IMG/VR virus record: IMGVR_UViG_3300005077_000001
Span: 1 to 64,000 of that record
Length of the DNA stretch: 64,000 bases
Origin: a virus
Lineage: Duplodnaviria; Caudoviricetes
Direction: 5' to 3' (one strand)
Below, piece after piece: positions 3,580-20,443 of this stretch. Position numbers and translations under genes: made by a program. The notes beneath the pieces were generated by a model that made no database searches, had not been told where the DNA came from, and saw only the letters and a program-made list of their open reading frames with translations. Numbering within the stretch: the first letter of the stretch is position 1; each line of letters starts with the position of its first letter.

Positions 3580-3635
3580 ATATATTTAATGTACTAAGGA
3601 TAGAACGAACAACTCAAGAAAGGAGTAAGGTATTC

Positions 3636-3899
3636 ATGAAAAGGTTATCTATCCTGAGTATTTGTATAGTAGTTTCCATTTTGGTTGCTGCTACTTTCTC
3701 TGTTGCTCGGGGACCGATTGACTACAATCCGTACAACGGCCGTCCCGATTACAACCCGAACAATCCTGGTGGTGGAGCAATATCGGTTGGTGAAGCTAAC
3801 CACTACTATCAGGAAGCCATTCGGGAATGTCAAAGTTTCTGTGCCAGAAATGCACGGAATGAAGTTCAATATCGGTGGTGTATTTCCGGCTGCCGATAG
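3636..3899 (+). CDS. Small secreted Cys-rich protein
   Basis: AAGGAG RBS; signal-like MKRLSILSICIVVSILVAATFSVA; C-terminal CxxxC...CxxxC. Confidence 0.6.
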   Translation: MKRLSILSICIVVSILVAATFSVARGPIDYNPYNGRPDYNPNNPGGGAISVGEANHYYQEAIRECQSFCARNARNEVQYRWCISGCR

Positions 3900-3937
3900 T
3901 TCAGAACGTACGTGCATAGGAATATGAACAATTTATA

Positions 3938-4580
3938 GCCCGAGTAGAAGCTCTCTTCTGGTAGAAAGGTGGTGAGATCATGAAGAGGTGGTAGACATCA
4001 ACAATACTAATGACATGAGCTACCGGCGATTAGTAATAGGGTAAGAGAAAAGGAAGTAGGAAAAAAGAGGCCATGAAAACACGAATAAATCAATTTCTTT
4101 TTCTATATAGCCCATCCCTCGGCAGCTAGGGGAATCATGGGGGAGGTGACAACCTGCAATCGAGTTCCGCAGGGGAATAGCTGGTAGCTGCCTTCCAATG
4201 GAAAGGCATACAATCTCCGGTATCCGGCTTAATTCCATCGAGGGAAACGAGCCAAGGGGGTAAACCTCTAAGGGTATATAAGCTCTTAATTTACCTGTCC
4301 TCTTCCAGCGGAGGGTTGCAGGATTAGTGACTAGTTACTTACCTTATGGCATCATTGCCACTTCCCAGGAGTAACTAGAGCTGGCTTATTGCAAACATCT
4401 TGTGACCTTCTAGAGTTTCGGGCTCGCCCAAGTTCGGGAAACGTAGAAGCTCAGCTTGATCAACTGGGTGGAGTTACCAAGGAATGCGGGCAGCTTCAGC
4501 GCAAATCACAAGATGATGGTACCATTTGCAATAAGAAAAATCTATCCGGGGAGGGTAAAACCTCCCCCACCCATTGAGGT
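3938..4580 (+). ncRNA. Candidate large structured ncRNA (about 430-640 nt), family unknown
   Basis: No credible ORF; perfect helices 4138-4147/4560-4569, 4385-4395/4525-4535, 4396-4405/4506-4515, 4331-4339/4370-4378, 4121-4128/4185-4192, 4153-4159/4316-4322. Confidence 0.7.
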
Positions 4581-4782
4581 ACAAAATGAAAAATAAAAAA
4601 GGGAAGAAGAAATTAGTACCAAGAAATATTCTTATTCCGAGTATGAGGTTACATTGCAAACCAGGGCCTCATAAGGATAAGAAAAAGCAAGCATCAAAGA
4701 AGGCTTGCCGATTTAAAATTAATATTCAAATATAAATACCTACCATCATGGTAGGAACAGTTAAGTGTCCAGGGGGTTATGG

Positions 4783-5046
4783 ATGCCGAATTTGATCGGT
4801 AATTTGGATCGAGTGGCGGTAGGAAGTTCAGAATATTGGGAGATTTTGGGACTCAGGGCTGTCTCCCTATGTACTGGGCTGGATGAGTTCTTGAAGGCAA
4901 GTGAATTACCATTAACTGTTCTCCACCAAGCAATTAAGGTAGCTGAACGAAAGAAAGGACCTTCCTCATCGACGATGAGGGGCCTGAAGTTCTTGATGGG
5001 ATTGAAAGAGAAAGAAGAATCCGATAATAAGTCGGAGGTGGCGTAA
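4783..5046 (+). CDS. Hypothetical protein
   Basis: ATG after AGGGGG; stop overlaps the next ATG. Confidence 0.6.
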   Translation: MPNLIGNLDRVAVGSSEYWEILGLRAVSLCTGLDEFLKASELPLTVLHQAIKVAERKKGPSSSTMRGLKFLMGLKEKEESDNKSEVA

Positions 5047-5225
5047 TGGCAGCGCCTATATTGTTGAAAGAGGTAATGCCAGGATTCCGGTATCGTACTC
5101 CAAAAGGAATTGTTGTGGAGGGACCAAGAGATCTGTTAATTGAAAGACTATTAAAAGAAGTGCTAGGGGCTGATGTCTTCGATCGGCCTGATCGAGAAGA
5201 CAGTTGGTTAGCACATAGTATATAA
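5046..5225 (+). CDS. Hypothetical protein (59 aa)
   Basis: GGAGG RBS; MAAPILLKEVMPGFRYRTPKG...; followed by a hairpin. Confidence 0.55.
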   Translation: MAAPILLKEVMPGFRYRTPKGIVVEGPRDLLIERLLKEVLGADVFDRPDREDSWLAHSI

Positions 5226-5239
5226 CACGTAATACTATG

Positions 5240-5265
5240 AGGAACCACCAGCAAAGGTGGTTCCT
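5240..5265 (+). terminator. Hairpin terminator candidate
   Basis: AGGAACCACC/GGTGGTTCCT 10-bp inverted repeat; T-tail is weak. Confidence 0.55.
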
Positions 5266-5397
5266 TAATAAAAGCCTTATGGTTAGTACCCTCTAACCCA
5301 AGGATTTTATTTAAAAGTACAATAGGGTAGTTATATTTAAAAGTATCATAGGATTAGTTTTTACGCTACATCCTATAATACCTAATTGGAGGAACAA

Positions 5398-5574
5398 ATG
5401 GCTCCCTTAAGTGCAAAGGAAACATTGATCGTTGCTGGTGTAACTTCTTTGGTGTGGAGTTTAGGTATAGGAATGGTGAAACTCTACAAACACTTTTTCA
5501 AAGAAGTTGCTGATCCAGCTGGAGCGGGAACAACAAACAGGAATGAAATCCTTTTCAGGAAATTTTCCCTTTAG
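5398..5574 (+). CDS. Small membrane protein
   Basis: GGAGG RBS; hydrophobic LIVAGVTSLVWSLGIGMV. Confidence 0.6.
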   Translation: MAPLSAKETLIVAGVTSLVWSLGIGMVKLYKHFFKEVADPAGAGTTNRNEILFRKFSL

Positions 5575-5633
5575 GTTTTTAGTTTGTTATTTAAGTAACT
5601 CACTACATAACACATTAACTTAAGGAGTAAACG

Positions 5634-6092
5634 ATGGACACTAGGCAGTTTCAAGCGTTCCTACTACATCAATTGAAAAACTATGGAGTGGAAGATACCA
5701 TTCCAATTTGGAGTCATTACTATCGAGTCACTTGCAAAGGACAGAAAGAGTTGGCAGCTACCAGTTGTGTCCTTATTTCCAAAGCAGATTTTCATCCTAT
5801 AAGTAAGGGGATGGCTGTTGTTTCTTCCAGAGATAACGGCGACAAAGTGATTGGTCGTTGGTTGTCTTTGCAGCGTGCTTGTGAAGGAATGCTTGAGAAG
5901 AAAGATAGCCAAGAGAAAATTCGTACGAAACAAACAATCCTTGGCTTTGAAGCACTACCCAAGAGACACGGTTCCTTCTCATTCAAGAAAAGCATCTACC
6001 TCAAGAATGAACTCAACTGGCCCACTTTCCTAAGCGAACAAGAATTCAAGAATGTGACAAAGAAACAGAGGACAAAGCAACTCGTAGCTTAA
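5634..6092 (+). CDS. Hypothetical protein
   Basis: 152-aa ORF with AAGGAG RBS. Confidence 0.7.
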   Translation: MDTRQFQAFLLHQLKNYGVEDTIPIWSHYYRVTCKGQKELAATSCVLISKADFHPISKGMAVVSSRDNGDKVIGRWLSLQRACEGMLEKKDSQEKIRTKQTILGFEALPKRHGSFSFKKSIYLKNELNWPTFLSEQEFKNVTKKQRTKQLVA

Positions 6093-6099
6093 TGTCTTT

Positions 6100-6175
6100 G
6101 GTTCCGTAGCTCAGTTGGTAGAGCACCCGGCTCATAACCGGATGGTCCTTGGTTCGAACCCAAGCGGAACCACCA
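6100..6175 (+). tRNA. tRNA with CAT anticodon, probably Ile2 (lysidine type), possibly elongator Met
   Basis: GGTTCCG/CGGAACC acceptor, CTCATAA loop, GTTCGAA T-loop, encoded CCA; G1-C72 excludes initiator. Confidence 0.9.
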
Positions 6176-6180
6176 ACTGC

Positions 6181-6255
6181 TCACCGATAGCTCAATGGTA
6201 GAGCAACGGGCTGTTAACTCGTGGGTTGTAGGTTCGAGTCCTACTCGGTGAGCCA
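6181..6255 (+). tRNA. tRNA-Asn(GTT)
   Basis: TCACCGA/TCGGTGA acceptor, CTGTTAA loop, G73, CCA. Confidence 0.95.
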
Positions 6256-6262
6256 ACCACGT

Positions 6263-6349
6263 GCCTGAGTGGTGGAATTGGTAGACACAAGGGACTTAAA
6301 ATCCCTTGGAGCTTGCTCCGTGACAGTTCGAGTCTGTCCTCAGGCACCA
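6263..6349 (+). tRNA. tRNA-Leu(TAA)
   Basis: GCCTGAG/CTCAGGC acceptor, CTTAAAA loop, long variable arm, CCA. Confidence 0.95.
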
Positions 6350-6366
6350 CGCTTTAAACAATATAA

Positions 6367-6861
6367 ATGAAGGGAGAGACAATGAAGCTTATACTCTGTC
6401 CCCACTGCGGAGACGTTGTTAAACTTACGATTAGGGTCCCGCGTTTTTGTGAGTGTGGAAAAAGTTGGGGCCAATACCACAAAGATGGACTCAACGCTGA
6501 CATCGGTGGAGAAGCTATCCCTTTGGGATTTGCTAACCAGTCTTTTATCAAAGCATTGAAAGACAGACCAGAAGAAGGGGAGGGGTCAAGATTTGAGGCC
6601 TTCGTTATCCCCAAGAAAGCTTCGTCTATGCATAAGAAAAAAGATGCCCCAAGACCCCTCAAAACATGGGTTGCCAGTCTGTGGGGAACTATGATGATAT
6701 TTGTTGCTCCCACTCATGCGGAAGTGGTTGAGCACATTCTGGAGAAGGGTTACGTAGAAGGCATTGGTCCTGTAGATTTGGGAGAACACATTTGGGAACT
6801 ACCCTCTGGCGGCTATCCAGAGAATAAAGTAACCTTGATCTGTAAAGGAAAGAGAGAATGA
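6367..6861 (+). CDS. Hypothetical protein with N-terminal CxxC zinc-ribbon
   Basis: CPHCG...CECG motifs. Confidence 0.7.
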   Translation: MKGETMKLILCPHCGDVVKLTIRVPRFCECGKSWGQYHKDGLNADIGGEAIPLGFANQSFIKALKDRPEEGEGSRFEAFVIPKKASSMHKKKDAPRPLKTWVASLWGTMMIFVAPTHAEVVEHILEKGYVEGIGPVDLGEHIWELPSGGYPENKVTLICKGKRE

Positions 6862-7079
6862 GGGTACCAGAACCAACACAGCTTTACCAGCATTTCAAAG
6901 GTGACTTTTATTTGATTATGGGAGTGGGAAGACACACAGAAACTGGAGAGTGGATGGTGTGTTTCCGAGAGGCTTCTGCTGGAGTTTATTGGTTTAGACC
7001 TTTGAGCATGTGGAACGAAGAAGTAGAATATGAAGGAAAAATGATTCCTAGGTTTAAGCTGATAACAGTGAATATATAG
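6858..7079 (+). CDS. DUF1653-like protein
   Basis: YQHFKGDFY...RHTETGE.MV...WFRPLSMW.EEVE...PRF pattern. Confidence 0.8.
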   Translation: MRVPEPTQLYQHFKGDFYLIMGVGRHTETGEWMVCFREASAGVYWFRPLSMWNEEVEYEGKMIPRFKLITVNI

Positions 7080-7139
7080 GCTGCCGTAATCAAATGGCTG
7101 AAGAAACTGGATGTCTTTCACATAAAGAAAGGAAAAATA

Positions 7140-7361
7140 ATGACACAAGAGGTGCTTTTCGCTTTGATGGTGGGAATTACTTTTGTATGGAGTATAGTAG
7201 GGTATCTACTCCTTTCAAGAGAAAATGTGAGAAACAATGCTTACTATACCCAAAAAATATATAACCTCCATGCCATAATTTTTGAGGTTATAAATATGTT
7301 TCCACCAGAAAAAAGCCGTGAATGCTTGGATAATATCAAGAACAAACTTGAAGAGGGGTGA
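7140..7361 (+). CDS. Small membrane protein
   Basis: N-terminal hydrophobic helix; AAGGA RBS. Confidence 0.55.
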   Translation: MTQEVLFALMVGITFVWSIVGYLLLSRENVRNNAYYTQKIYNLHAIIFEVINMFPPEKSRECLDNIKNKLEEG

Positions 7362-7402
7362 CAAAATTATGTCAACAAAAGTAGAAGCAAGCTGAAAGAT
7401 CA

Positions 7403-7720
7403 ATGGACAATTGTAGAAGAGTTGTTGCAGATTATAAAGGAGGAGTAATGCGTATCTATCGTATTTCTTCGTATGATGGAGAGGAACATAAAACAGTAGA
7501 AATAAATCTGAGTGATGTTCCTCAATGGGGAGCAATACGAGAATTTCTGCAAAGCAGGAATTATAAAAAGATCCTTCACACTATTGCAGAAATGAAGGAG
7601 GATGGAAAGATAACCAGGGAAATTTGTTTTGATTCTCAAGGCAACACGGATTTGAATAAGATGGACCCAGTTGCAAGAGAATTGGTCAAGAAATTTGATC
7701 AACGGAGGCACAAACCATAA
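7403..7720 (+). CDS. Hypothetical protein
   Basis: 105-aa ORF; stop overlaps the next ATG. Confidence 0.6.
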   Translation: MDNCRRVVADYKGGVMRIYRISSYDGEEHKTVEINLSDVPQWGAIREFLQSRNYKKILHTIAEMKEDGKITREICFDSQGNTDLNKMDPVARELVKKFDQRRHKP

Positions 7721-8163
7721 TGGATATCAGAAGTGGCAGGGGATGGCCATCCTCAGCATTAAGTAACTTTGCTCCTCATCCTTTTGAGTTGGATGGAGTG
7801 GAGATTACCTCAATGGAGGGATTCTTACAGTCACTTAAATTCAAAAACACAGAGTTACAACGATACATCTGTACATTAGTAGGTAAGAAAGCTAAGTTTG
7901 CTGGTAAGAAAAAGAAATGGTAGATTACTGGCAAACTTTATTGGAATGGGGAGGAATATGATAGGTTTGGTAAAGAATACCAATTACTCTTAGACAGAGC
8001 ATACCTTGCTATGTTTTGTAACAATACATCTGCAAGAAAAGCTCTTGCGGCAACGGGCAAATCTCTACTCACCCACACTATAGGCAAAAAGGATCAGAAA
8101 ACTACAATCTTGACTGAAGCAGAATTCTGCTCAAGATTGATGAAGATTAGAGCAGAGTTGTAA
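7720..8163 (+). pseudogene. NADAR-family (T4 gp30.3-like) gene interrupted by an in-frame TAG at 7921-7923
   Basis: WPSSALSNFAPHPF..DG...MEGFLQ..K; same frame continues after TAG with LYWNG...TILTEAEF to TAA at 8161-8163, giving 147 codons. Confidence 0.8.
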
Positions 8164-8180
8164 GGAGATCAAGGAGCTAT

Positions 8181-8735
8181 TTGATGAAAGATTACCATAT
8201 TACCAAAGTATACTTTCCTGGAGTTACTTTTTCATATGAAGTTTACGAAGATATCTTCATGAACGGAGAAGTTAGGCTATTCAAAAATAGAAAAGTCTTC
8301 GTTCATGAAATCCCAACCCAGCTTCTTCCTCCACCTTATTGCTTGACACCAGGAACTAAACATTGTTGGTTCCCTGTTGGCAGAGTAGTGTGGAACGTCA
8401 CTCATCCAGATGATATTGCAATGCCTTGGGAGCAGATACACCACGACACTGATAAGTTGAACAACTGTCCGTATAACCTTATCAAATTGCATAAGAATGA
8501 TCATAAAAAATTACATAAGCAAAGAAATCCGCCCACACTTTCATCCAAGATACCAAATGAACTTATAGATTTCATTGATGATAATATGTACAAAATGTGC
8601 AAAAGCTCAATACTACGTAAACTTAGGGAACTGTTTCCTGACAGTTATCCATCTCGTTCTGCTTTCAAAAGGATATTCAGAAAAGTACGGCGTAAACGTT
8701 TAATTGATGAGTTTAAATTGGTGGTGAATCAATGA
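8181..8735 (+). CDS. HNH endonuclease (HNH_3-like)
   Basis: IHHDTDKLNNCPYNLIKLHKNDHKKLH. Confidence 0.75.
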   Translation: MMKDYHITKVYFPGVTFSYEVYEDIFMNGEVRLFKNRKVFVHEIPTQLLPPPYCLTPGTKHCWFPVGRVVWNVTHPDDIAMPWEQIHHDTDKLNNCPYNLIKLHKNDHKKLHKQRNPPTLSSKIPNELIDFIDDNMYKMCKSSILRKLRELFPDSYPSRSAFKRIFRKVRRKRLIDEFKLVVNQ

Positions 8736-9169
8736 TCTCAAAAAAGAAATACGAAAAGTTATTGATGGTATGGCTGAGATGTAGACGAGTGACGCGTGAT
8801 GGAAACATCTACATCAAATTCAAAAGACAGTTCTTCAAAGAATCCAGAGTGGTATATCAACTGCACCACCCTGATGAAGATATATCTGGATTTGATATTC
8901 ATCACAAGGATGTTAATCGTGCAAACAATCATCCTTCAAACCTACAGAAAATTAGCAATATAGATCACATTAAGTTGCACAACAAAGAGCAACTTATAAG
9001 TGCAGCAAGAAGACTTTCGAAGAATATTAAAAACCTGGTACTTAGGGAGCTGCTGGATGGAATTCCAGCAGGTATAATCACAAAAAGGTACAACGTCACA
9101 AGAACAGAGGTTACCTCTGTGTTGTTGTACCACAACAGAAACGTGCAGGAGGTTAGTCATGTTGGATGA
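8732..9169 (+). CDS. HNH endonuclease (HNH_3-like) with C-terminal HTH
   Basis: IHHKDVNRANNHPSNLQKISNIDHIKLH. Confidence 0.85.
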   Translation: MISKKKYEKLLMVWLRCRRVTRDGNIYIKFKRQFFKESRVVYQLHHPDEDISGFDIHHKDVNRANNHPSNLQKISNIDHIKLHNKEQLISAARRLSKNIKNLVLRELLDGIPAGIITKRYNVTRTEVTSVLLYHNRNVQEVSHVG

Positions 9170-9309
9170 TCCTGTGTTGCTGTTTTTGGAGGCACAATTC
9201 CTATTCTATGGGGAAATGTCCGAAGGGGCTAAGTCCTGTAGTGAGAGAATTGCACTAGGAGAAAAACAAAGCATAGTTAATGAACTCATAACAGAAAGGA
9301 ACAAACAAC

Positions 9310-9609
9310 TTGCGTCTATGGCTAGATGATCGACGCCCAGCCCCACCTGGTTGGACTCAAGTTACAAAAGCGGAAGACATTATTAATTTCCTCTCAATCT
9401 TCGGAGATAAAATAACCCATATCAGCCTTGATCATGACCTCGGGTATTACAGGACTGGGTATGATGTGGTTTGTTGGATTGAAGAAATGGTAATTGAGAG
9501 TGGATTCATCCCACCTGAGATCTATGTGCACTCTAACAATCCAGTCGGGAGAGCACGTATGGAAGCAGGAATTCAAAGTATCAAAAGGAAGCTTCAATGT
9601 ATTGAGTAA
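9310..9609 (+). CDS. Cyclic-phosphate-processing receiver-like domain protein
   Basis: LWLDD.RP.P..W, ISLDHDLG, TGYDVVCWIEE, VHSNNPVG pattern. Confidence 0.85.
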   Translation: MRLWLDDRRPAPPGWTQVTKAEDIINFLSIFGDKITHISLDHDLGYYRTGYDVVCWIEEMVIESGFIPPEIYVHSNNPVGRARMEAGIQSIKRKLQCIE

Positions 9610-9845
9610 TGGTTGGTGGAGGAATAATCCTTTCCATTATTCTTGCTTTTGGAGTAACAGCAAGGAGGAAACTGTGAAATCAACAGCTATTCTACTAAGT
9701 GTATTCTTTACAGTTTGGTGGTTTGGTAATGATACGATGCCGTTTGATAATGGCACAGCATGGGTTTCTAATTGTATCCAAACCACTTCCTTCGTGTAAT
9801 TATATATTTAATGATATAAAGGATCATATTAACAGGAGGTGTGGC

Positions 9846-9971
9846 ATGGTGCGTATTCTTAAGCTTAGAAAAAGGGAACAGAGAATCATAGCCAAAAACA
9901 TCGCCAGATGGAAGATTGAACAAGCCGACAGGGAGTTCCGAAAGGCAGTGGAAGAAAACAAAGTAGCATAG
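9846..9971 (+). CDS. Small basic protein (41 aa)
   Basis: AGGAGG RBS; MVRILKLRKREQR...; followed by a terminator. Confidence 0.55.
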   Translation: MVRILKLRKREQRIIAKNIARWKIEQADREFRKAVEENKVA

Positions 9972-9982
9972 TAGCTTCAATA

Positions 9983-10020
9983 GAGGGGCGAAAGCCCCTC
10001 ACACACATACTTTTTTTCAA
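9983..10020 (+). terminator. Hairpin terminator candidate
   Basis: GAGGGGC-GAAA-GCCCCTC with a T-run about 10 nt downstream. Confidence 0.6.
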
Positions 10021-10393
10021 GAAACCTTTGGGTAGTACCCTCTGCCCAATGGTTTTGTACTATAGGGTTAATCAAGACAGGAGGTACTTATGGATATAAT
10101 TACGCTACTATTAATCGCTATTGCTATTCTGAAAGGTATTGAATACCTTTTCGGAATCGAGATTTACATACAAGGGACTCGCCTTGTAATAGAATACGGA
10201 AAGGAAACAAAGCCATGACTAAAGAGGATGAACAGATGGTTGTTGATGAAGTGGTGAAAAAAGTCAAACCAATTCTACAAACATGGATTGATGCCCATAA
10301 GGAAGATGTGAAAAAACAAATCATATCTGAAATTATGGGTAAAAACCACGTCGCCAAAGTGATAATCATCTTATAGAAAAGAAGGAGTAACGG

Positions 10394-10837
10394 ATGTCTC
10401 AGCGAAGGATGATTGCTGACCATATTCATGTTTTAGCAAGGAAAGATACGGAGTTCTTGAAGGAGGAGATCGTGTCTTTTGCTAACGATCATTTTGGAAA
10501 AACATCTTCCGCATATGTAGTGCTCAGTACTTGTCGAAGAGTAGGGTCAATCAAACCTGTGAAAGGACACAAACTATACTTGCAGGTTATGGTTGATCCA
10601 AAACTTCCGCCCGACGAATTCTTCAAAAAGTTGTTGGGACTCAAGAATTCACCTCGACAGGCCGGTGCAACTACACTTGAGGATTTGAGATCTATTGTAA
10701 ATGATCTCAAGAAGAGTGTGGATGCACAAGCTCAAGAAATAAAGCTACTGAGACTCCAGACTACATCAACTCCGCAATCGTCTTTCATGGATTACAGAAC
10801 GCAAATGAGGTTTATGTCCCACCTTATACGTAGGTAA
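10394..10837 (+). CDS. Hypothetical protein with C-terminal coiled coil
   Basis: 147-aa ORF with AAGGAG RBS. Confidence 0.7.
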   Translation: MSQRRMIADHIHVLARKDTEFLKEEIVSFANDHFGKTSSAYVVLSTCRRVGSIKPVKGHKLYLQVMVDPKLPPDEFFKKLLGLKNSPRQAGATTLEDLRSIVNDLKKSVDAQAQEIKLLRLQTTSTPQSSFMDYRTQMRFMSHLIRR

Positions 10838-10909
10838 TAATTGGAATTTTGGGGTAGGATGGGAATAGCTAAACGTAGCGAGGACCTACCCCTTAGTTCT
10901 ATTTCTTGT

Positions 10910-10985
10910 GGGGTCATAACTCAGTTGGTAGAGTATCGCCCTTTTAAGGCGAGAGTCGAAGGTTCGAACCCTTCTGGCCCCACCA
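10910..10985 (+). tRNA. tRNA-Lys(TTT)
   Basis: GGGGTCA/TGGCCCC acceptor, CTTTTAA loop, CCA. Confidence 0.95.
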
Positions 10986-11009
10986 TATAACCAACCTTCT
11001 TCAATCAGT

Positions 11010-11355
11010 GGGGGCGAATTGGATTCGACGTGGGTAATTGAAGCTATTGTCTCGTGCAGGGTGTTGGACCCTATAACCAACAAAACCTCAAAAGAACTGA
11101 CGAAACTTTCGAGTACGCTGAAGCTGCGTAAGCTTCCACTCTTCTAATCTTTCCTACGGAGAGGAATGAGTGAGGTCAGTAGGATAGCTCGATCTCAGTG
11201 TCCAGAAGGGATTGGGTGAAATAGACAAGGACTGCATTCAAAGAAAGTGGTCGAGTCACGTTCTTTGGATAAAGACTAAACACTCGAATACGCACGTAAA
11301 AAGGACAATATGTGGAAGACTTGCGGACGTGGCTTCGACGCCACCGCCTCCACCA
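11010..11355 (+). ncRNA. ssrA: tmRNA; tag (A)DETFEYAEAA* at 11099-11131
   Basis: 5' GGGGGCG..GGATTCGAC; 3' T-arm GTGGC-TTCGAC-GCCAC and CGCCTCCACCA; G3:U70 Ala identity pair; tag ORF after AAGAACT ends AA-stop. Confidence 0.95.
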
Positions 11356-11386
11356 CCAATTCCTTCAAGCAATCATACATTTTTTA

Positions 11387-11517
11387 GAGTCTGGTTATAT
11401 ATGGCAGTTATATCCTGGCCTGCCTAAGTGAGAGATTCTCTCCACCAGACTCGGAGAGGGTGGAAAGAAATGATTGGCAACAATGAGAGGATTGTAGCTG
11501 ATCATTTCTTCCTCTCC
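11387..11517 (+). ncRNA. Two abutting structured elements downstream of the tmRNA
   Basis: GAGTCTGGT/ACCAGACTC three-way junction, then GGAGAGG/CCTCTCC plus AAGAAATGAT/ATCATTTCTT long hairpin. Confidence 0.55.
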
Positions 11518-11539
11518 AAACAAATAAGAAAGGAAACCA

Positions 11540-11785
11540 ATGCCTATAACTTTTGAATCCCCGTATTGGACAAAAGAAGGTGTATGCCTGAAGCATATGG
11601 GTTATGCACCCTGCATTGAATGTCTAGATTCGTACGATCAACATATTCACGCATCTTTAGACAAATATACCATTGAGATGCTTCGATGGGGTTTTGATGA
11701 TGAATACGTTGAGGATGCAATCGAAGATCTAAAACTATTTAACCACAAGCAAATATTGTTCAGAAAATTCACCATGTGCGAATAA
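11540..11785 (+). CDS. Hypothetical protein
   Basis: AAGGA RBS; 81 aa. Confidence 0.6.
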   Translation: MPITFESPYWTKEGVCLKHMGYAPCIECLDSYDQHIHASLDKYTIEMLRWGFDDEYVEDAIEDLKLFNHKQILFRKFTMCE

Positions 11786-11844
11786 TAATATATCTAAAGA
11801 AATACAGGTATATCAATACCTGTTATCACAAGCGGAGGTACAAC

Positions 11845-11991
11845 ATGACTAGAGCGTTTATCGGATGCCTTTTGGCATTGGTTGTTTGGTTCAAAGGGAA
11901 GTGGGCTTGGGATTGGATGAACAGTACTGCCCAAGCAATTCAAGAGGAATATGATTTCAAATTCCCTTGGCAAAAAAAGAAAAAGGCTTAA
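11845..11991 (+). CDS. Small membrane peptide (48 aa)
   Basis: GGAGG RBS; MTRAFIGCLLALVVWFKG. Confidence 0.6.
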   Translation: MTRAFIGCLLALVVWFKGKWAWDWMNSTAQAIQEEYDFKFPWQKKKKA

Positions 11992-12262
11992 GAAATTCCC
12001 AATTCATAGTATTTACCATATATACTATTAAGCAGTGAGCTTGGCAACCTTGCTGCTTTTTTTTGCTACATATCTTCAAGCATGAATAAATTGGCTCTTA
12101 TTCGCTTGGAGGGTATCACTGCCTTGTGAATTCGCCAACAACGAATACAGGGTTAAGTACCTAAATATGTAGCTTGAAGCATTTGGTATTCATCAAGCAA
12201 TTGATGTTGATGTTATTAATTGATACATAATACGCATCTAACTTTTCTGTAAGGAGTTTTAG

Positions 12263-12442
12263 ATGACCTGTCGAGCCTGTGGATCACTGAATATCCATAA
12301 CATCATTGAGGATATTTATGAATGTCAGGATTGTGGGTATCAGTGGGAGAAAAATAACAAGGAAGACGAATTGATTTGTTTACCTCTTGATATTTACCTC
12401 AAGTACAAGGAGAATGCTAAAGAACCATACATCATACGTTAA
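12263..12442 (+). CDS. Small zinc-ribbon protein (59 aa)
   Basis: AAGGAG RBS; CRACG...CQDCG. Confidence 0.6.
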   Translation: MTCRACGSLNIHNIIEDIYECQDCGYQWEKNNKEDELICLPLDIYLKYKENAKEPYIIR

Positions 12443-12510
12443 ATTGGTGTGCTATGCTTGCGCTATTTTTTTATTTAATGTATAATAGTATTTAAGAAAG
12501 GAGCTGCACA

Positions 12511-12756
12511 ATGAAACAGATAACAGCCAAAGATCTGTGTCAGGCGTTGGATAGGCGTGTACAAAACTCACCTATCACTAGCCTCAACCCATTATATATG
12601 GAACCGCCTTTGTCCTATTTCAGGATGAGGGCATGTAAGATCACAGAGCCAGTTGTAACTGCCAATAATCTTGGCATCTCAGACAAAGAACTCGCCACAT
12701 TCGTTGAGAAATTCCTCAATGAGAAACCAGACCCAGATCCTAAGTTCTGGGCCTGA
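12511..12756 (+). CDS. Hypothetical cassette protein
   Basis: AAGGAG RBS after the promoter motif. Confidence 0.65.
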   Translation: MKQITAKDLCQALDRRVQNSPITSLNPLYMEPPLSYFRMRACKITEPVVTANNLGISDKELATFVEKFLNEKPDPDPKFWA

Positions 12757-12901
12757 ACACGTTGTTTAATGTAGGTTTGCACATGGAAACCGCGAGAACG
12801 GTTTTCTTTTTATTATAATATTATATTCTTAATATATTTAATGATGTATAGGATAACGTGTATGCGTTAGTCCTGTAAAGACTTTACAAAAGGAGACAGT
12901 C

Positions 12902-13072
12902 ATGGCTGAACTTACACCGGAAGAAAAAGCAGCAAAAGCAAGAAAGAAGGAATCCGCAAAGCAATTTGGAAAGGTTGTTGCAGGAACAACTCTCGGCTCG
13001 TTGATTGCTGCGGGATTGATCTTCATCGGCAAGATGGTGATCGGCTGGTTTACCAGATCCGCCGCCGCTTAA
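12902..13072 (+). CDS. Small membrane protein (56 aa) ending RSAAA
   Basis: AAGGAG RBS; MAELTPEEKAAKARKKESAKQFGKVVAGTTLGSLIAAGLIFIGKMVIGWFTRSAAA. Confidence 0.7.
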   Translation: MAELTPEEKAAKARKKESAKQFGKVVAGTTLGSLIAAGLIFIGKMVIGWFTRSAAA

Positions 13073-13374
13073 GCGATGTACCGGCATGGTGGGGGTAGGT
13101 AGATAGTAACCAAAATACCTACTCCCGCCTATCTTAATTATCTTAATATGGAAGTAAATAAGCCGCACGAGCGGCTTAATATTAACTATGCACATAAATA
13201 CGAAAAAAGGAGGCTACCGTTGGTATGGGTATGGTTAATGGCTAACTCAACGTTAGCTGCTCACAGTAAAGAAGCTGACCTGGATTTGTTCATTTCTCCA
13301 GGTCAATGGATTGGCAATCCCGAAGATCTTCATCATCTTTGGAAATTCTGTACAAAGATATAAGGAGGTTATTC

Positions 13375-13797
13375 ATGTTTGAATTGGAACGATCTACCAT
13401 AGAGGTATTATACTCTTATGGACCAAAAAACAATGTTGCTGCAAGTCCTAAAGAGATGATATTGCCTATCATTGAGGCTATGCAGTCTCAAATCAAAAGT
13501 GGCATCGCACAATACAACACCAAAGAAGCAATGCTTTCATTAAAGAAAGTTATTTGCGCCCCGGTGTCTGAATCCTGGAATCCTCGGCTATCTATTGAAG
13601 AAGCCTTGTGGAAAAGTCGAAACATCAAACCATACGAAAGCTATGTTTACATGGAAAACTATCTCATGGAACATTATAGCCAGAGTATGGACATTCAGCC
13701 AGACGAGGATTTGTTCCTCATTGGTAATTTCTTTGACAGTTTTCTGTATTTGGTCTCTAGGAGCATGGATTCAGTGTGGAGAATACCAAACCGATGA
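13375..13797 (+). CDS. Hypothetical protein
   Basis: AAGGAGG RBS before ATG at 13375. Confidence 0.65.
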   Translation: MFELERSTIEVLYSYGPKNNVAASPKEMILPIIEAMQSQIKSGIAQYNTKEAMLSLKKVICAPVSESWNPRLSIEEALWKSRNIKPYESYVYMENYLMEHYSQSMDIQPDEDLFLIGNFFDSFLYLVSRSMDSVWRIPNR

Positions 13798-13903
13798 TTA
13801 ATCCCTACTTTTTAGAGAGATACCTGCGGTTTCTCTCTTACATGTGTGCGTAAATAATATATATAATGTAATATAGTATTAAATTAAAACAAAGGAGATC
13901 AGA

Positions 13904-14155
13904 ATGGTAAGAAACCATGACATTCAAAGTGAGGTAATAATAGTCGGTGGTGCAGATGCAAGCATCATTGTTTTGTGTGATGATCCTAAAATTGGATTCA
14001 TTGCATTGAACGGGGAAAGAGGAAATTCCACTGTGCGCCTTAGAATAGGTGACTTTGTGGATTACTCAATTATGGGCGTAAAGTGGAGTGGAAGATTCAC
14101 AGGAGATGTGACTCCTGGAGGTAGTGCAATCTTCGAAAGGAGTGTTCATGATTGA
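13904..14155 (+). CDS. Hypothetical protein
   Basis: AAGGAG RBS after the promoter motif. Confidence 0.65.
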   Translation: MVRNHDIQSEVIIVGGADASIIVLCDDPKIGFIALNGERGNSTVRLRIGDFVDYSIMGVKWSGRFTGDVTPGGSAIFERSVHD

Positions 14156-14687
14156 AGAAGCCCGCTCTTTGGCAATGCAGCTGCACGCCAAGCAGATCAG
14201 AAAATCCAACGGGTTGCCTTATGTGACCCATCTGGAGGAGGTAGCCAATATCGTTGCCAATTACAAAGGCAGTGATATAGCTATTGCTGCTGCGTGGTTG
14301 CACGACAGTATTGAAGATCAGCAGGTGGATGAATCGCTCATTCACCCCGCTGTCTTGTCTGTTGTTAAGGAACTTTCCGAGGAAAAGAGTCTTTCTTGGG
14401 AAGTTCGTAAGAAGAAGGCAGTTGATGATATTGCCCTTCTGTCTGCTGATGCCTTATTGGTTAAAGCAGCAGATGTTCTCTCCAACCTGCGTGGGATCAT
14501 GAGAGATAGCTATAAGAATCCAGAGTTCTGGAAGCCGTTCAAGAGGGGAAGAAGACAAACGATAGGCTTCTATACCTCTTGTGTTCTTGCCATTGAACGA
14601 CAAGGGTGGAAGGGTTATATAGCTATTCCGTTGTGTTTGGAACTCGACAACATGCTCACGTTGATTAGTCATCATGACTTTTCGTGA
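14148..14687 (+). CDS. HD-domain hydrolase, RelA/SpoT hydrolase (Mesh1/SAH)-like
   Basis: H..Q.RK....PYVTHLEEVA, AAWLHDSIED, V.ELSE, VKAAD.LSNL. Confidence 0.88.
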   Translation: MIEEARSLAMQLHAKQIRKSNGLPYVTHLEEVANIVANYKGSDIAIAAAWLHDSIEDQQVDESLIHPAVLSVVKELSEEKSLSWEVRKKKAVDDIALLSADALLVKAADVLSNLRGIMRDSYKNPEFWKPFKRGRRQTIGFYTSCVLAIERQGWKGYIAIPLCLELDNMLTLISHHDFS

Positions 14688-14894
14688 GCAATTACCGTTG
14701 TAGAGAAGACCACTCGGTCTTCTTTACATACGGGCACGTACATAAATGGGAGAGGAATGTATGCAGTTGTACAAGCCATAACGTACGACAATCTCATAAT
14801 AACCAATCCCTAGTGGATGTGGATGAAGAATAACTGCAAGTAATTGCGGTTTTCTTCAACGCATACATAATAAAATATATTTAAGGAATTATAG

Positions 14895-15245
14895 GGAAGA
14901 TTGACTGAATTAACAGGTGGCGTGCTTAATGGATTCGCCAGTACCATTAAGACGAAGGTATGAAGTAGAACCGGGCGACTACACTGGTCTAAACCTATAT
15001 ACCCACAATGCTGCACCTTTTGCCGCCCAGAAGGTGTAAGAGTCTTCCCAACTGGAATAGGGAGCTTTGAGGTGAAGCACCTGAAAGAATGGTAGCCCAA
15101 CGGTTTTGTCCACAACAAAGTGCGGGGCAGGAAAAGAAAGAAAAGTAGATTGTGGGCTCTACTTGCCTAGTCCTCCAACTCCTGAATTAAACTACCTAGG
15201 GGAGACTAGGAAACCTCACCACAAGAAAAGCTGCTTAGGCGGTTT
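14895..15245 (+). ncRNA. Candidate multi-pseudoknot ncRNA (about 340 nt) between a promoter motif and a hairpin
   Basis: Stems 14925-32/14944-51, 15014-19/15031-36, 15143-48/15159-64; loops complementary to 14918-22, 14973-77 and 15002-09 respectively. Confidence 0.7.
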
Positions 15246-15370
15246 TTCTTATACGCACACATCAGTTTTAAACAAAAAAGAAACCGCTATTGCCAATGCT
15301 TGATTGCTCACGGCATGGCGGTTTTCTTTCATATGTGTGTATTTAATTTAATGTACAATAGGAGGTAAAC

Positions 15371-15766
15371 ATGAATCCCTTATATCACGGCTCATTAAAG
15401 GCGTTAGATGTAGTTAAGCCTTTCCCTTCTAACTTAACAAACAACATACCTGTAGTCTTTGCTACTCCAATTTGGATTATTGCATTGATTATGGGTACAG
15501 GGTGGAAGGATAACAATATTAACTGTGGCTATGTGAACGGGGCTCTCACCGTAACAGAAGTCACAAAAGATGCGTTTGAAAGATTCTTTCATAGACAAAC
15601 GTATGTTTACACATTTGACTATGATGAGTCTTTATGGTACCACCACCATAACTTATGGGCATGTGAGTTTGTATCTTATCAAGAACAGATTCCTATTCAT
15701 ATTCAGACTGTAGAAGATCCATTTGTGCATATACAAGAACATGCACATTTGGTATACTACAAATAG
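15371..15766 (+). CDS. Hypothetical cassette protein
   Basis: GGAGG RBS; 131 aa. Confidence 0.7.
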   Translation: MNPLYHGSLKALDVVKPFPSNLTNNIPVVFATPIWIIALIMGTGWKDNNINCGYVNGALTVTEVTKDAFERFFHRQTYVYTFDYDESLWYHHHNLWACEFVSYQEQIPIHIQTVEDPFVHIQEHAHLVYYK

Positions 15767-15849
15767 GAAGCTGCGGCTTCCTTTATACACGTACATGTAA
15801 TTATTTATATATATAATGTACAATAGAATAAAAAAGAAAGGAGAATAGT

Positions 15850-16059
15850 ATGATAACCAGAGTGGGAGAACTCCCCACGTATGACCCCTTGACAGGGGAG
15901 CGTCTGTATCTTTCTATCCATTCAGACGGGAGCGTCATCATTGAGTGGGTAGATAAGGATGGCGAAGTCACATTCGCCAAACTGATAAAAACCATGGACG
16001 AGCTGCATAAGGCAATTCGTGCTTTTGGTTTCAACCCTCCTCCACGAAAGGAGAGATGA
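15850..16059 (+). CDS. Hypothetical cassette protein
   Basis: AAGGAG RBS. Confidence 0.6.
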   Translation: MITRVGELPTYDPLTGERLYLSIHSDGSVIIEWVDKDGEVTFAKLIKTMDELHKAIRAFGFNPPPRKER

Positions 16060-16265
16060 ATGCACTGGATAAAGTTCCAGGCAACGAATTTCGAGATACG
16101 AGAGTTCTTGGGAACATGTTGCCCCGAACTTTACAGCTCGGAGATGTCAGTGTTCCTAAGAAAGGGCAAGAGAGGCCAGTCCCCTACTCTCCTTCTCGAC
16201 GGTGGATCAAAGCTGACTGCCAAGGGTGGCGGTTGGTACAGGATCAGCACATACAGTGCGTTTGA
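16056..16265 (+). CDS. Hypothetical protein
   Basis: AAGGAG RBS; ATGA overlap with the upstream gene. Confidence 0.5.
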   Translation: MNALDKVPGNEFRDTRVLGNMLPRTLQLGDVSVPKKGQERPVPYSPSRRWIKADCQGWRLVQDQHIQCV

Positions 16266-16530
16266 GAATGACATTCCTTTCTGCATTCCGGGTAAAATAG
16301 GAAGTGCGTCATTCTAGTTAATGAAGAAACTGCAAGCAATTGCGGTTTCTCTCAACCGATTCATATACCGATATATTCCGATATGTGTATGCATACGCAT
16401 GGGAATAAAGATTTAACTATCTGTATTTATTGATAAACCGACTTCCCCGCCCCCAAATAAAAAAGGTTATCGTGTGTAGTATATATCTAATGTTATATAG
16501 TATTAACATAGAAACAAGAAAGGAGAAGTC

Positions 16531-16866
16531 ATGCTTACATGTAGAGTAGAAACTGATCTAGATGCAGGATGTATGAGGGTAACCGATCTACATACGAGAG
16601 TAGAAGTAGGTAGATGCTATATTTCATGGCATCCTGATTATACTATTATCTCGTATATAGAGGTAGCAGAGTATGCCCGTAGAAGAGGAGTTGGGGCATT
16701 TATACTTGATTTCATCCAAAAGGAAAACAAGAAGACACTTATATTAGGAACTCAATCAATGAATGTTCAAGCAAGAGCATTTTATAAAGCAATTGGATTT
16801 AAAGAAGTACAACGAGTAAGGATAGACCCAGGAAGTTTAATGTTGGAAAGACTTTGTTCTATCTAA
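16531..16866 (+). CDS. GNAT-family acetyltransferase
   Basis: IEVAEYARRRGVGAFIL (motif A), NVQARAFYKAIGF (motif B). Confidence 0.85.
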   Translation: MLTCRVETDLDAGCMRVTDLHTRVEVGRCYISWHPDYTIISYIEVAEYARRRGVGAFILDFIQKENKKTLILGTQSMNVQARAFYKAIGFKEVQRVRIDPGSLMLERLCSI

Positions 16867-16899
16867 AGGAGACTGCGGTTTCCTTTTTTACATTTACAA

Positions 16900-17400
16900 T
16901 TGTTTATAGGAATAGATTTATTAATTATTACTAATAGACAGATATAGGTTTTATATTATTATGAATGTAGGGAAATTCCTATATTTATGGGTATAGATTT
17001 ATTAATTATTTTATAAGGATAGATACACATTTATATTATTATAGGTATAGAGCAATTAATAATAAATTTTGTGGTTTTAGGTCTTTGTAAATAGGTGTTA
17101 TTATTTATAAAGATGGGGAGGTATAATGATATAAACAATTAAATTTATGTTATTATAATGGTATGCATTTATTTACAAAGGTAAGATGTATAAGTATTTA
17201 TATTCATTTACTATATGAATAGACTTGCGCATTTATAAGTAAGGGTTTTTATAGCTACTTTTTAATTAATAAATGCTAATGTAATTAAATAGATAGATAC
17301 AAATTTATATTGTTATAAGTATATGTTATTATTAATTTATTAATGTTATCCTAAAGGTGCTTTTTTATCTCTCTCGCCGTTTGTGCCTTCATTCTTTTAT
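16900..17400. other. Very AT-rich non-coding tract, possible origin or terminus region
   Basis: No ORF of 60 aa or more; repeated ATAGATTTATTAATTATT (about 16912 and 16995). Confidence 0.4.
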
Positions 17401-17427
17401 TTATTTTTATTTATATTTGATGAATAA

Positions 17428-17556
17428 TGGGTATGGTCACGGATCTAAATGGGTGTCTCAAAGGAAGAGGCACCAGTGATAGGATAACGTGGCTAATAAT
17501 CTGCTGCCACACTGTCTAAGGTCAGAGACCTGGCAGATACTCTGGCACCATACCCA
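17428..17556 (+). ncRNA. Candidate multi-stem ncRNA (129 nt)
   Basis: Closing helix TGGGTATGGT/ACCATACCCA enclosing three hairpins; GC island within AT-rich DNA. Confidence 0.6.
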
Positions 17557-17677
17557 CTCAAAAACCCTTGGCGGTTTTTATTTCCCGCATTTATATGATT
17601 AAATACGTATTCTTCCATAATTGGATACTTATGTACTTTTTGTTCCCCACGTAGTCAAAACCACCCTTTTTTATCGT

Positions 17678-17862
17678 ACCTAATAATTTCATATACTTAT
17701 ACATTTGTGTATGCTTTTATAATTACATTTTTGTTCTAGCCTATATACAAAAATGACCTTAAATGCACCCACCTAATAATTTCATATACTTACGTAAACC
17801 AACCTATAATTATATAATCCTTTTTTGTTCTCCTCTATATACGAAAATGACCTAAAATATCT
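17678..17862. repeat. Imperfect tandem repeat, two units of about 93 bp
   Basis: ACCTAATAATTTCATATACTTA at 17678 and 17771; TATACRAAAATGACCT in both units. Confidence 0.75.
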
Positions 17863-17969
17863 ACGAATTTATTTATATAGTCATTATACCTATTAAATTG
17901 GTATTCCTTAATACCTATGTATCTATTTAATTAAGGTGTTGCTTATAGTAAAGAAAGGAGAAGGTTGAT

Positions 17970-18611
17970 ATGAAGGAAAAGAGAATATTTACTAGTAGGT
18001 TAAAATATATAAAGGTAAAGGAATTTATTTTATGCGGATTTGATGTGATTGAGTTATGTGATTATTTTCATATTTATAATAACAAAAGAACAAATTTCAT
18101 TAGCTTTAGTAATAAGATATTACACTTTGATAAAGAATTTAATAATTGTGATGTTTGTGATAAAAAACTTCCCTCTACTTGTTTTGATATAGATAAAAAA
18201 ACAAATATATTAAAAACCATTTGTAAATTATGCTTATTTAAACAGCAAGTAATCACTCAAAATTATAAACTAAGAACTAAAGCACAGTTACTTAAAGAAA
18301 AGGCAATTCAATATAAAGGAGGAAAATGTGAACTTTGTGACTGTAAAACACAGATACTGTCTTCTTATGATTTCCATCATTTAAATCCTTCAGAAAAAGA
18401 TTTTAATATATCTACTGCTTTAGCACAAACTAATGACTTAGAAAAAATAAAACCTGAATTAGATAAATGTATACTACTATGTGGTAATTGTCATAGGTTT
18501 ATTCATTCTATTGAATATGAGAACTTATTAGTTGGAGCAATGAATCAATCAATTAAAATAACACCTTCTAAGAAACAATTCAAAAAGTTATTAAGTAAAT
18601 CTTTACAATAA
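17970..18611 (+). CDS. Zn-binding HNH-type endonuclease
   Basis: GGKCELC, YDFHH..PSEKDF, ELDKCILLCGNCHRFIH. Confidence 0.85.
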   Translation: MKEKRIFTSRLKYIKVKEFILCGFDVIELCDYFHIYNNKRTNFISFSNKILHFDKEFNNCDVCDKKLPSTCFDIDKKTNILKTICKLCLFKQQVITQNYKLRTKAQLLKEKAIQYKGGKCELCDCKTQILSSYDFHHLNPSEKDFNISTALAQTNDLEKIKPELDKCILLCGNCHRFIHSIEYENLLVGAMNQSIKITPSKKQFKKLLSKSLQ

Positions 18612-18677
18612 ATTTTTATTTATAGCGCGCGCCATTTATATATTTAATATGAGATTATAAAGGAAAAGGAGGGGTGA

Positions 18678-18863
18678 ATGTTAACGCTGTGGCTGTACTG
18701 TAACTCTGTACTGAGTAGATGTGGAACTTCCTACTTTGACCAATTGGCAGACCATTTTTTGGAAATCTCAGTTGAGGCACAGAGTAAGAGCACATCAAGG
18801 TCTTCTTCTCATTCAACTCCGAAGGAAACTTGGGAGATAGCTATGAAGAAAGAAACCGCTTAG
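18678..18863 (+). CDS. Hypothetical cassette peptide
   Basis: AGGAGG RBS after the promoter motif; ends in the GAAACCGC hairpin. Confidence 0.5.
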   Translation: MLTLWLYCNSVLSRCGTSYFDQLADHFLEISVEAQSKSTSRSSSHSTPKETWEIAMKKETA

Positions 18864-19126
18864 GCGGTTTTCTTTACCCACACATATTTATATATTTAAT
18901 AATTTATAGAATATCATTTATGTGTGTGCCCATAAGAACACCATACGACAGGACTTGCTGAATCATTCCCAAGACGCAAGCCGATAAGTGAACGGAGGAT
19001 AAGAAGATGTTTCTCCTCGTTGTCCTGAGCATGACATAAAAAGGCTCATTTCTTTCTTTATTTATTTCTTTATTTAAATGTACCACCCTTGGTACATTCC
19101 TTCCCCTTGATATATTTAATGTATTA

Positions 19127-19310
19127 TGGGTTATCTTTGACGGGCTGAGTGGGGGATAACGGCGACGTCTTTATTGCCTTGCCCTTCCTCGTTTGCCGGG
19201 CCGCTTAGATAACCCACGGAAAAAGGAGGCAAGCCAAAACTGGGTATAAGGCCACGAGTCTCCTGCGAGTTTATCCTGTTCTCGCTTTATGCTCTAATAA
19301 CAGGGACCCA
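19127..19310 (+). ncRNA. Candidate pseudoknotted ncRNA
   Basis: TGGGTTATCT/AGATAACCCA helix starts at the promoter motif; GCGAG/CTCGC loop CCTGTT is complementary to AACAGG 19299-19304. Confidence 0.6.
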
Positions 19311-19457
19311 AAGAAATCAATAAAAAAAAGTTTGAGTGGGATGAACAATGGAGAAATCGCTGAGCACATTAGCGGTTTTTTCATACACGCGTATAATAAT
19401 ATATTTAATGTTGTATAGAGATGTGTTAGCATCTTAATGAAGAAAGGAGGAAATCAC

Positions 19458-19739
19458 ATGTCTGATTTCTTCGTTCAAAAGATGTTTGCCTTGGCAGAGG
19501 CCGAGGCCAAGCGGCAGGGCAAGGAAGAGTTCGCAAAAGAACTCATGCAGGGGCTGATGCAGGGGTTGCAGATGATTGCCCCCATCATCGGTTCCATGAT
19601 TCAGGCCGACAGTCAGCCCAACACTTACGCCATCAAAGAGGAAATCCGGCGTGAGTTTCAGTCCGAGATGGACAAACGCGAAGACCGGCTGCATAAGAAG
19701 CTGGAAGAAATTGTCAAGGCAATCAAGCCCGGAATCTAG
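19458..19739 (+). CDS. Hypothetical coiled-coil protein, GC-rich codon usage
   Basis: AAGGAGG RBS; 93 aa. Confidence 0.75.
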   Translation: MSDFFVQKMFALAEAEAKRQGKEEFAKELMQGLMQGLQMIAPIIGSMIQADSQPNTYAIKEEIRREFQSEMDKREDRLHKKLEEIVKAIKPGI

Positions 19740-20081
19740 CCTCGACGCCCCGTGGTCTTCATTCAATTAGCCGCTTGTTCCCCTCCCAAGCGGTTTTCTT
19801 TTATACGTACATATATGGGAATTTATTTTTATATATTTAATGTTGTATAGGATTAGGGGTTATAAGGAAAAGGGAGGGCAGTCATGGTTGAAATCAAAGT
19901 GAATGGCGTGATTTATCGCATCGTAAGGCGATAGACTGCCAATGCATATCGGCACTAAGAGCCAAAAAATAGTTATTGAAACCGTGCTTTAGCGGTTTCT
20001 TTATTCACGTGTATGTATTTATATATTTAACGTATTATAGGGATGGATTTATTCATCTCAATCTTTGATGGAGGTTGGGCA

Positions 20082-20192
20082 ATGATCTGGAATATCTTAG
20101 GCACTCTTTTCAAAATAATTACCACAATGGTGTTGGGGGTGATAGTAGTCATTGCAGGAAACACCCTGTACGATAACATTAAAAACAAATAG
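20082..20192 (+). CDS. Small membrane peptide (36 aa)
   Basis: GGAGG RBS; MIWNILGTLFKIITTMVLGVIVVIAGNTLYDNIKNK. Confidence 0.6.
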   Translation: MIWNILGTLFKIITTMVLGVIVVIAGNTLYDNIKNK

Positions 20193-20443
20193 CCGCCTAG
20201 CGGCTTTTTTACTTTGCACGTTTATTTATATATTTATGGATTTATAGGAGTTAGAAGCTCCAAAAAGTGATGCTGCTAATATCCTGTGGGGTGTTAGCAG
20301 TTTTTTTGTTTATGTTTATATTTATGGGTTTATAGAAATGGTAAAGGCACTCACAAAAATAAGCGGTATTAATTAAATAATAATAATATATAAGGTATAA
20401 TAGGCTACAGTGGTAGTTTCTCATCTCTCTACGGAGGTGTACC

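Follow-up and report, generated by a model that had tools for sequence, protein, structure and literature searches.

A candidate stand-alone non-coding transcription unit in the early-region cassette array of a jumbo phage

The plus-strand stretch at 14894-15250 in the early region of a jumbo phage genome is best explained as a stand-alone non-coding early transcription unit whose RNA would act in trans on a binding partner, an explanation that is put forward tentatively and with somewhat less than an even chance of being correct. The stretch, approximately 330-356 nt in length, lies between a 21-nt promoter-like motif and a member of a repeated GCGGTTTT hairpin family. It comes from a 256,335-bp IMG/VR virus record that is 97% complete according to CheckV, and all coordinates refer to the window, which is the first 64 kb, or left end, of that record.

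The genome has a GC content of 33% and encodes a T4-type large terminase, a clamp-loader subunit, an actin-like protein, a phage tmRNA and four tRNAs. Its terminase is approximately 26% identical to those of the nearest cultured phages, which infect Bacillus, and 51% identical to those of the nearest uncultured relatives, two IMG/VR records; judged by these identities, the jumbo-phage lineage is therefore poorly sampled. It is probably a lineage of Bacillota phages, with which its strong AAAGGAG Shine-Dalgarno sequences are consistent. The actin-like protein, encoded at 58584-59609, matches the Pfam family Volactin (E = 3.5e-62).

The 21-nt motif, ATATATTTAAT-G-N3-TATAG, has 22 matches in the 256 kb by PWM scan, 20 of which are on the plus strand. 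Eighteen plus-strand copies fall between 3.6 and 20.4 kb (3599-20335), where each stands at the start of a small unit, and the direct-repeat families D1-D8 agree with this census. The copy that precedes the candidate, at 14869-14894 on the plus strand (core ATATATTTAA-N-TATAG, 14875-94), scores 25 bits, and its last G, at 14894, is also the first base of the helix P1 described below. At the other end of the stretch lies an intrinsic-terminator-like hairpin of 12 bp (15223-34 paired with 15239-50, loop TTAG, plus strand), with a T-run in and after its 3' arm. Most units of the array end in GCGGYTT hairpins, and, like most unit ends, the 15223-50 hairpin belongs to the repeated ...GCTTAGGCGGTTTT... 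family (repeat family D5). Protein-coding units have an AAAGGAG-type Shine-Dalgarno sequence no more than about 30 nt from the motif, a feature that is missing from the 14894 unit.

Neither boundary of 14894-15250 is detected by generic sigma-70 and consensus terminator scans. The sigma-70 consensus scan called no copy of the motif, in which no -35/-10 pair is recognisable, and sigma-70-type sites in the region show no excess (29 found versus 34 expected). Because the generic scans miss both boundaries, a promoter function for the motif and a terminator function for the hairpin are proposed from their recurrence and from the grammar of the array. An earlier note on this DNA had claimed that the stretch, at about 340 nt, forms its own transcription unit. 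The motif, the hairpin of the terminator family and the lack of an ORF are indeed all present, and it is from these that we infer transcription itself.

By its sequence organization the array would qualify as one of PeSL-like cassettes, in which a repeated promoter and a terminator stem-loop surround small cargoes in one orientation. PeSL cassettes (promoter-early stem-loop; Arbiol et al. 2010) drive modular shuffling in T4-type phages (PMC2839356). The likeness lies in a hyperplastic early region, in repeated modules of promoter and terminator stem-loop, and in small, mostly orphan cargoes; a likeness of sequence would not be expected. PeSL promoters are sigma-70-like, whereas the present motif has no recognisable -35/-10 pair, and the cargo considered here is non-coding.

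Directly after the motif, the plus strand is predicted to fold into a five-way junction that occupies 14894-15050 and is closed by the 9-bp helix P1 (14894-14902/15041-15049). Its branches are P2 (14905-07/14914-16), H1 (14921-23/14952-54 continued by 14925-32/14944-51), P4 (14957-62/14998-15003), which carries inner helices, and H3 (15012-22/15028-38), an 11-bp stem with the 5-nt loop CCGCC. The MFE structure of this 157-nt domain is identical to its centroid structure, and the predicted pair probabilities of P1, H1 and H3 range from 0.97 to 1.0. None of 200 shuffled sequences was as stable (z = -3.95; a second estimate gave z = -4.4). The reverse complement reaches a z of only -0.64, which shows the fold to be RNA-like and specific to the plus strand, and this specificity arises from G-U pairs.

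The 3' half (15051-15222) does not continue this pattern. It contains a hairpin formed by 15065-68/15084-87 and 15070-74/15078-82, a purine-rich linker at approximately 15128-15142, and a further hairpin, 15143-49/15158-64 with the loop TTGTGGGC, whose ensemble probability is about 0.25. With z-scores of -0.63 and -0.46, the segment 15051-15225 is no more stable than its shuffles.

Two other units of the array likewise lack an ORF, namely 17428-17556 and 19127-19216, each of which starts 2 nt before the end of its motif. Their closing helices are perfect 10-bp duplexes, TGGGTATGGT/ACCATACCCA in the first and TGGGTTATCT/AGATAACCCA in the second. The 17428 unit folds well (z = -3.65), and the 19127 unit does not fold beyond its closing helix (z = -0.45). 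When the 18 promoters are ranked by closing-helix score, the units at 14894, 17428 and 19127 take the top three places. Under a permissive search, a helix like P1 alone is not rare at random positions (P = 0.13), and each of the 10-bp closing helices has a probability of 3%.

As one cargo of the promoter/terminator cassette array, the stretch would be transcribed from G14894, the last base of the motif, or from a position 1-2 bases away, and transcription would be terminated by the 15223-50 hairpin. The stable five-way junction would form from the first 157 nt, with P1 sequestering the 5' end from the first nucleotide onward, and the terminator hairpin would cap the 3' end. The resulting stable RNA might resist nucleases and accumulate early in infection, and it might then bind a host or phage macromolecule in trans, serving as decoy or scaffold. 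Its likely contact surfaces would be the exposed G+C-rich loops CGCCA, CCGCC and GGGCGA together with the purine-rich linker. Should this be the case, the unit would add one more stand-alone structured RNA of large phages without known partner or function.

The strongest competing explanation, possible but somewhat less probable than the functional RNA, is that 14894-15250 is a decayed or empty cassette, that is, a functionless transcript or an untranscribed spacer left behind by modular shuffling, and that its hairpins merely reflect a structure-rich, G+C-enriched early region. The composition of the neighbourhood is in keeping with this explanation. The candidate has a GC content of approximately 47.4-47.7%, as does the tmRNA, but the coding sequence of the HD gene is nearly the same in GC (45.9%) and has a z of -5.4, and two further coding sequences, the downstream 131-aa gene (z = -4.4) and the ORF at 12511 (z = -4.9), are also more stable than their shuffles. 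Since neighbouring coding sequences score alike, neither the GC island nor the folding z-score separates an RNA from a protein gene here, and both were dropped as evidence for a non-coding RNA. The early region is, in general, G+C-enriched and structure-rich, with a mean z of -1.7 over 192 windows of its plus strand. The early coding sequences between 12511 and 16059 outfold dinucleotide shuffles on the plus strand, at a GC content of 37-52% as opposed to 33% for the genome. The 3' region of the HD gene (14688-14860) has a z of -6.1, and the window 14650-14799 one of -7.8; this region holds two terminator-like hairpins, at approximately 14706-14726 and at 14834-14857, between which lies just a 49-codon GTG ORF without a Shine-Dalgarno sequence.

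A decayed cassette would also be in line with the unstructured 3' half, with the lack of any relative in the collections searched, and with what lies directly downstream. There, the spacer at 15251-15335 (plus strand) has an RY-run but no promoter motif, and then a second GCGGTTTT hairpin (approximately 15281-15328). Elsewhere an RY-run normally precedes the promoter motif; in 15251-15335 none comes after it. The spacer thus has the look of a cassette that is empty or has decayed, and from its sequence it also seems to isolate the candidate RNA from the next gene. The window 15200-15349 has a folding z of -6.9. In the nearest relative by the HD gene (64% identity), moreover, the gene order around HD is shuffled and a different non-coding stretch is found there, and shuffling of this kind is what PeSL-type cassettes drive in T4-type phages (PMC2839356). 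Against decay, no trace of a former gene is seen in the stretch, which has no reading frame, no tblastx match to the relatives and no family; promoter motif and terminator alike are intact; and the strand-specific 5' fold closes exactly at the end of the motif, as do those of the two sibling units without an ORF.

The orphan status of the candidate comes from searches of several kinds. The comparison with Rfam by cmscan, which the earlier note had advised, matched no family. At the gathering level, Rfam 15 found only the tmRNA and the four tRNAs in the whole window, all of them outside the candidate, and at E ≤ 10 the segment 14600-15500 gave only noise far below threshold, with no match inside 14894-15222 on the plus strand. 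The families covered include tmRNA, RNase P, SRP, 6S, group I and II introns, riboswitches and small ribozymes, as well as GOLLD, ROOL, OLE, HEARO and raiA. ARAGORN made no call in the stretch. A tmRNA was rejected on this ground and also on the pairing of the 5' end, which is with 15041-49 and not with the 3' end; a ToxI-like repeat RNA was excluded because the stretch has no tandem repeats. Within the phage's own genome there are no paralogues and no significant antisense targets, the longest match being 14 nt (E = 0.28).

Beyond this genome, blastn against 50,697 phage records returned no homologue. Exact 16-mer searches of IMG/VR gave 7 chance matches without wider similarity, and loop-anchored patterns with free stems, run over IMG/VR, JGI metagenomes and GTDB genomes, gave one chance match, in a coding sequence. 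No homologue was found in the whole 260-kb relative with the 51% identical terminase by blastn, nhmmer or CM, on the contigs of HD-gene homologues (64% and 41% identity) walked to about 40 kb, near the homologues of the downstream 131-aa gene, at 22 IMG/VR loci that contain HD_4 genes, in five jumbo-phage records searched whole, or with tmRNA-anchored patterns designed for finding kin. The SRA k-mer index lists no sequencing run for the candidate. As far as these searches reach, the candidate is a single-sequence orphan, and its value is that of a candidate for in vitro probing.

A more ambitious version of the RNA explanation, by analogy with ROOL, GOLLD and the pRNA of phi29, is that at least three "5'-clamped" early RNAs (14894, 17428 and 19127) exist whose complementary loops pair between molecules or switch conformers; this is improbable. 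If it were so, and the likelihood is equally small, the 14894 unit would be the largest of the set, presenting CGCCA and CCGCC opposite GGCG and GGGCGA, together with a duplicated CCACAA partner. The RNAs would then constitute an RNA-only assembly or switch, and they would represent a novel class of phage RNA that is used as infection begins. The pRNA of phi29 offers a proposed parallel as a phage-encoded RNA with its own early promoter and complementary loops. It measures approximately 120-174 nt, its gene adjoins the packaging genes, it contains a defined three-way junction, and the contacts of its complementary loops are intermolecular, not intramolecular. The candidate, in contrast, shows no similarity to pRNA in the Rfam scans. 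The cassette grammar may outweigh this particular RNA in importance: a single motif would drive both tiny proteins and 5'-clamped RNAs without an ORF, and the motif and the 5' clamp together may serve as a simple guide for locating more early phage RNAs.

A third explanation, with a slightly smaller chance still, is that the unit is the mRNA of a micro-protein of 36-40 aa, with a 3' UTR that would be long and structured. Neither strand has a frame open across the stretch, and since every frame contains all three stop codons, recoding does not rescue a gene. The overlapping ORFs comprise one of 102 aa on the minus strand and others of 65, 40 and 44 aa, and none of them matches a Pfam or PHROG family. 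Coding on the minus strand was rejected, as the 102-aa ORF belongs to no family, is without homologues and does not appear among the called genes. There remains a single candidate small ORF on the plus strand, at 14929-15039, with 36 codons from ATG 14929 or 40 from GTG 14917 and a TAA stop at 15037-39. It has in its favour that the ATG stands 8 nt downstream of an SD-like AGGTGG, that other very small ORFs are among the cargoes of the array, and that its codon score is positive. Yet this AGGTGG is weak in comparison to the AAAGGAG of every clear protein unit, and ATG 14929 is buried in the 8-bp stem of H1 with a pair probability of approximately 1.0.

Codon usage was scored by training on 18 early genes with leave-one-out, which gave 0.167 ± 0.075 for the real early genes and -0.05 to 0.13 for the ORFs in the stretch; at 0.064, the 36-codon ORF lies below 16 of the 18 real early genes. 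Furthermore, no credible homologue of the 40-aa ORF was found among 1.84 billion representative proteins, and its single match was rejected as spurious, being to a 14-residue motif that occurs four times in a repeat protein with no relation to it. A micro-protein mRNA would also leave approximately 190 nt as unexplained 3' UTR. The ORF at 14929-15039 thus has neither a convincing SD-led start, nor phage-like codon usage, nor homologues, and the earlier observation that the stretch contains no convincing RBS-led ORF was confirmed, with no frame open, no ORF behind a strong Shine-Dalgarno sequence, and a low codon score.

About as improbable as the micro-protein is the explanation favoured by the earlier note, which described a compact RNA, such as a ribozyme, stabilised by three pseudoknot or kissing interactions within the molecule. 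The sequence features on which it was built are all present on the plus strand. They consist of the hairpin CTTAATGG (14925-32)/CCATTAAG (14944-51), whose loop holds CGCCA at 14936-40; the hairpin CACCTT (15014-19)/AAGGTG (15031-36), with CGCCC at 15024-28 in its loop; the hairpin AAGTAG (15143-48)/CTACTT (15159-64), with ATTGTGGG at 15149-56; and the stem CCTAGTC-CTCC (15166-76)/GGGG-A-GACTAGG (15199-15210), which closes a 22-nt loop. The three proposed contacts are a pseudoknot of TGGCG 14918-22 with CGCCA 14936-40 (5 bp, -6.6 kcal/mol), a loop-loop pairing of GGGCG 14973-77 with CGCCC 15024-28 (5 bp, -8.3 kcal/mol), and a long-range pairing of CCCACAAT 15002-09 with 15149-56 (8 bp, -10.4 kcal/mol).

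Against 2000 dinucleotide shuffles, the three perfect hairpins of at least 6 bp with 7-14-nt loops exceed the shuffle mean of 0.49 (P = 0.01), and perfect hairpins bearing loop complements are also more numerous than in the shuffles (P = 0.0045). However, approximately 71% of the shuffled hairpins find a loop complement of at least 5 nt somewhere in the sequence, so that both 5-bp pairings are at chance level. A complement of at least 7 nt has P = 0.026 and one of at least 8 nt P = 0.004. The shuffle comparison by which the earlier note wished its claim to be judged thus divides the three contacts: an 8-nt complement is rare in shuffled sequences, whereas complements of 5 nt are common there by chance. 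A separate shuffle test, made on the MFE structure, gives similarly borderline values, P = 0.04 for the top loop duplex and P = 0.007 for the sum of the top three, and the best loop partner is then the nested alternative described below.

The 5-bp contacts also encounter structural difficulties. Their partners are ambiguous, as the H1 loop TCGCC matches GGCGA 14974-78 as well. The first pseudoknot is sterically plausible and competes with a CGU/ACG extension of H1. As for the second pairing, the GTAG/CTAC helix needed to present GGGCG has a probability of approximately 0 in the nested ensemble, and the preferred 11-bp H3 stem takes up part of the loop proposed for the contact.

The 8-bp pairing overlaps two base pairs of P4, the first two bases of CCCACAAT forming the end of that helix, and it has a nested rival of equal energy (15108-15 with 15150-57, -10.1 kcal/mol). 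If 15149-56 pairs in full and the stem 15143-48/15159-64 is left standing, just 2 nt (15157-58) remain to span the 8-bp helix. By established stereochemistry the loops of an H-type pseudoknot must be long enough to cross the grooves of both stems, and 2 nt over 8 bp are too short. A partial pairing or a two-state switch would be more plausible, on these modelled structures, than the pseudoknot as drawn. Together with the 3' half, which is unstructured, and the failure of any ribozyme family to match even at E ≤ 10, these results leave the compact tertiary fold unsupported, although all of its complementarities exist and the 8-bp one is individually rare.

It is very improbable that the stretch is a cis-acting leader or attenuator of the 131-aa gene. 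In favour of this are its position upstream on the gene's own strand and the terminator at its end. Against it, two terminator hairpins in succession and another copy of the motif (ending at 15361) intervene, so that the two do not share a transcription unit, and the nearest homologues of the 131-aa gene have no such upstream element.

As a putative stand-alone early RNA, the candidate resembles GOLLD and ROOL, which are also stand-alone phage non-coding RNAs, with predicted loop-loop or pseudoknot contacts. GOLLD and ROOL are encoded in the vicinity of tRNA or tmRNA genes. Cryo-EM has shown their kissing loops to be partly intermolecular (PMC12286853). They differ from the candidate in length (approximately 580-800 nt as opposed to about 330 nt), and the candidate has neither a covariance-model match nor a family of homologues and is convincingly folded only in its 5' half. 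The tmRNA and a tRNA-Lys lie 3.5 kb upstream of the candidate and a three-tRNA cluster 8.5 kb upstream, in the same early region but not adjacent.

The phage tmRNA (RF00023, 11010-11355) scores 116.8 bits in Rfam and was missed by ARAGORN. At 346 nt, and with the GC content given above, it is similar in size and composition to the candidate and is encoded on the same strand of the same early region; it is also rich in pseudoknots, as was proposed for the candidate. The candidate, however, lacks an acceptor stem joining its ends, a T-arm and a tag frame, and receives no CM score. The T-arm variant of the tmRNA, GGCTTCGACGCC, is absent from the GTDB genomes and IMG/VR records searched. The relative with the 51% identical terminase also has a tmRNA (G001:C1:215104-215624, 521 nt, 61.9 bits), and the two tmRNAs have no nucleotide similarity.

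Some features of the relatives' early regions may be noted as well. That of the nearest HD-gene relative encodes an AcrVA2-like protein (L031:6658-7992). In the same locus a G+C-rich non-coding stretch of about 150 nt, different from the candidate, comes after the HD gene (L031:10517-10690). It ends in a terminator, beyond which stands a promoter-like ...TTATAATAG motif; this locus shares the grammar of the array but carries an unrelated cargo. Gene-free gaps of 1-2.6 kb without an Rfam match occur in the early regions of relatives (L034:926-3574, L065:10318-11719 and L066:780-1728), and these gaps may hold further RNAs.
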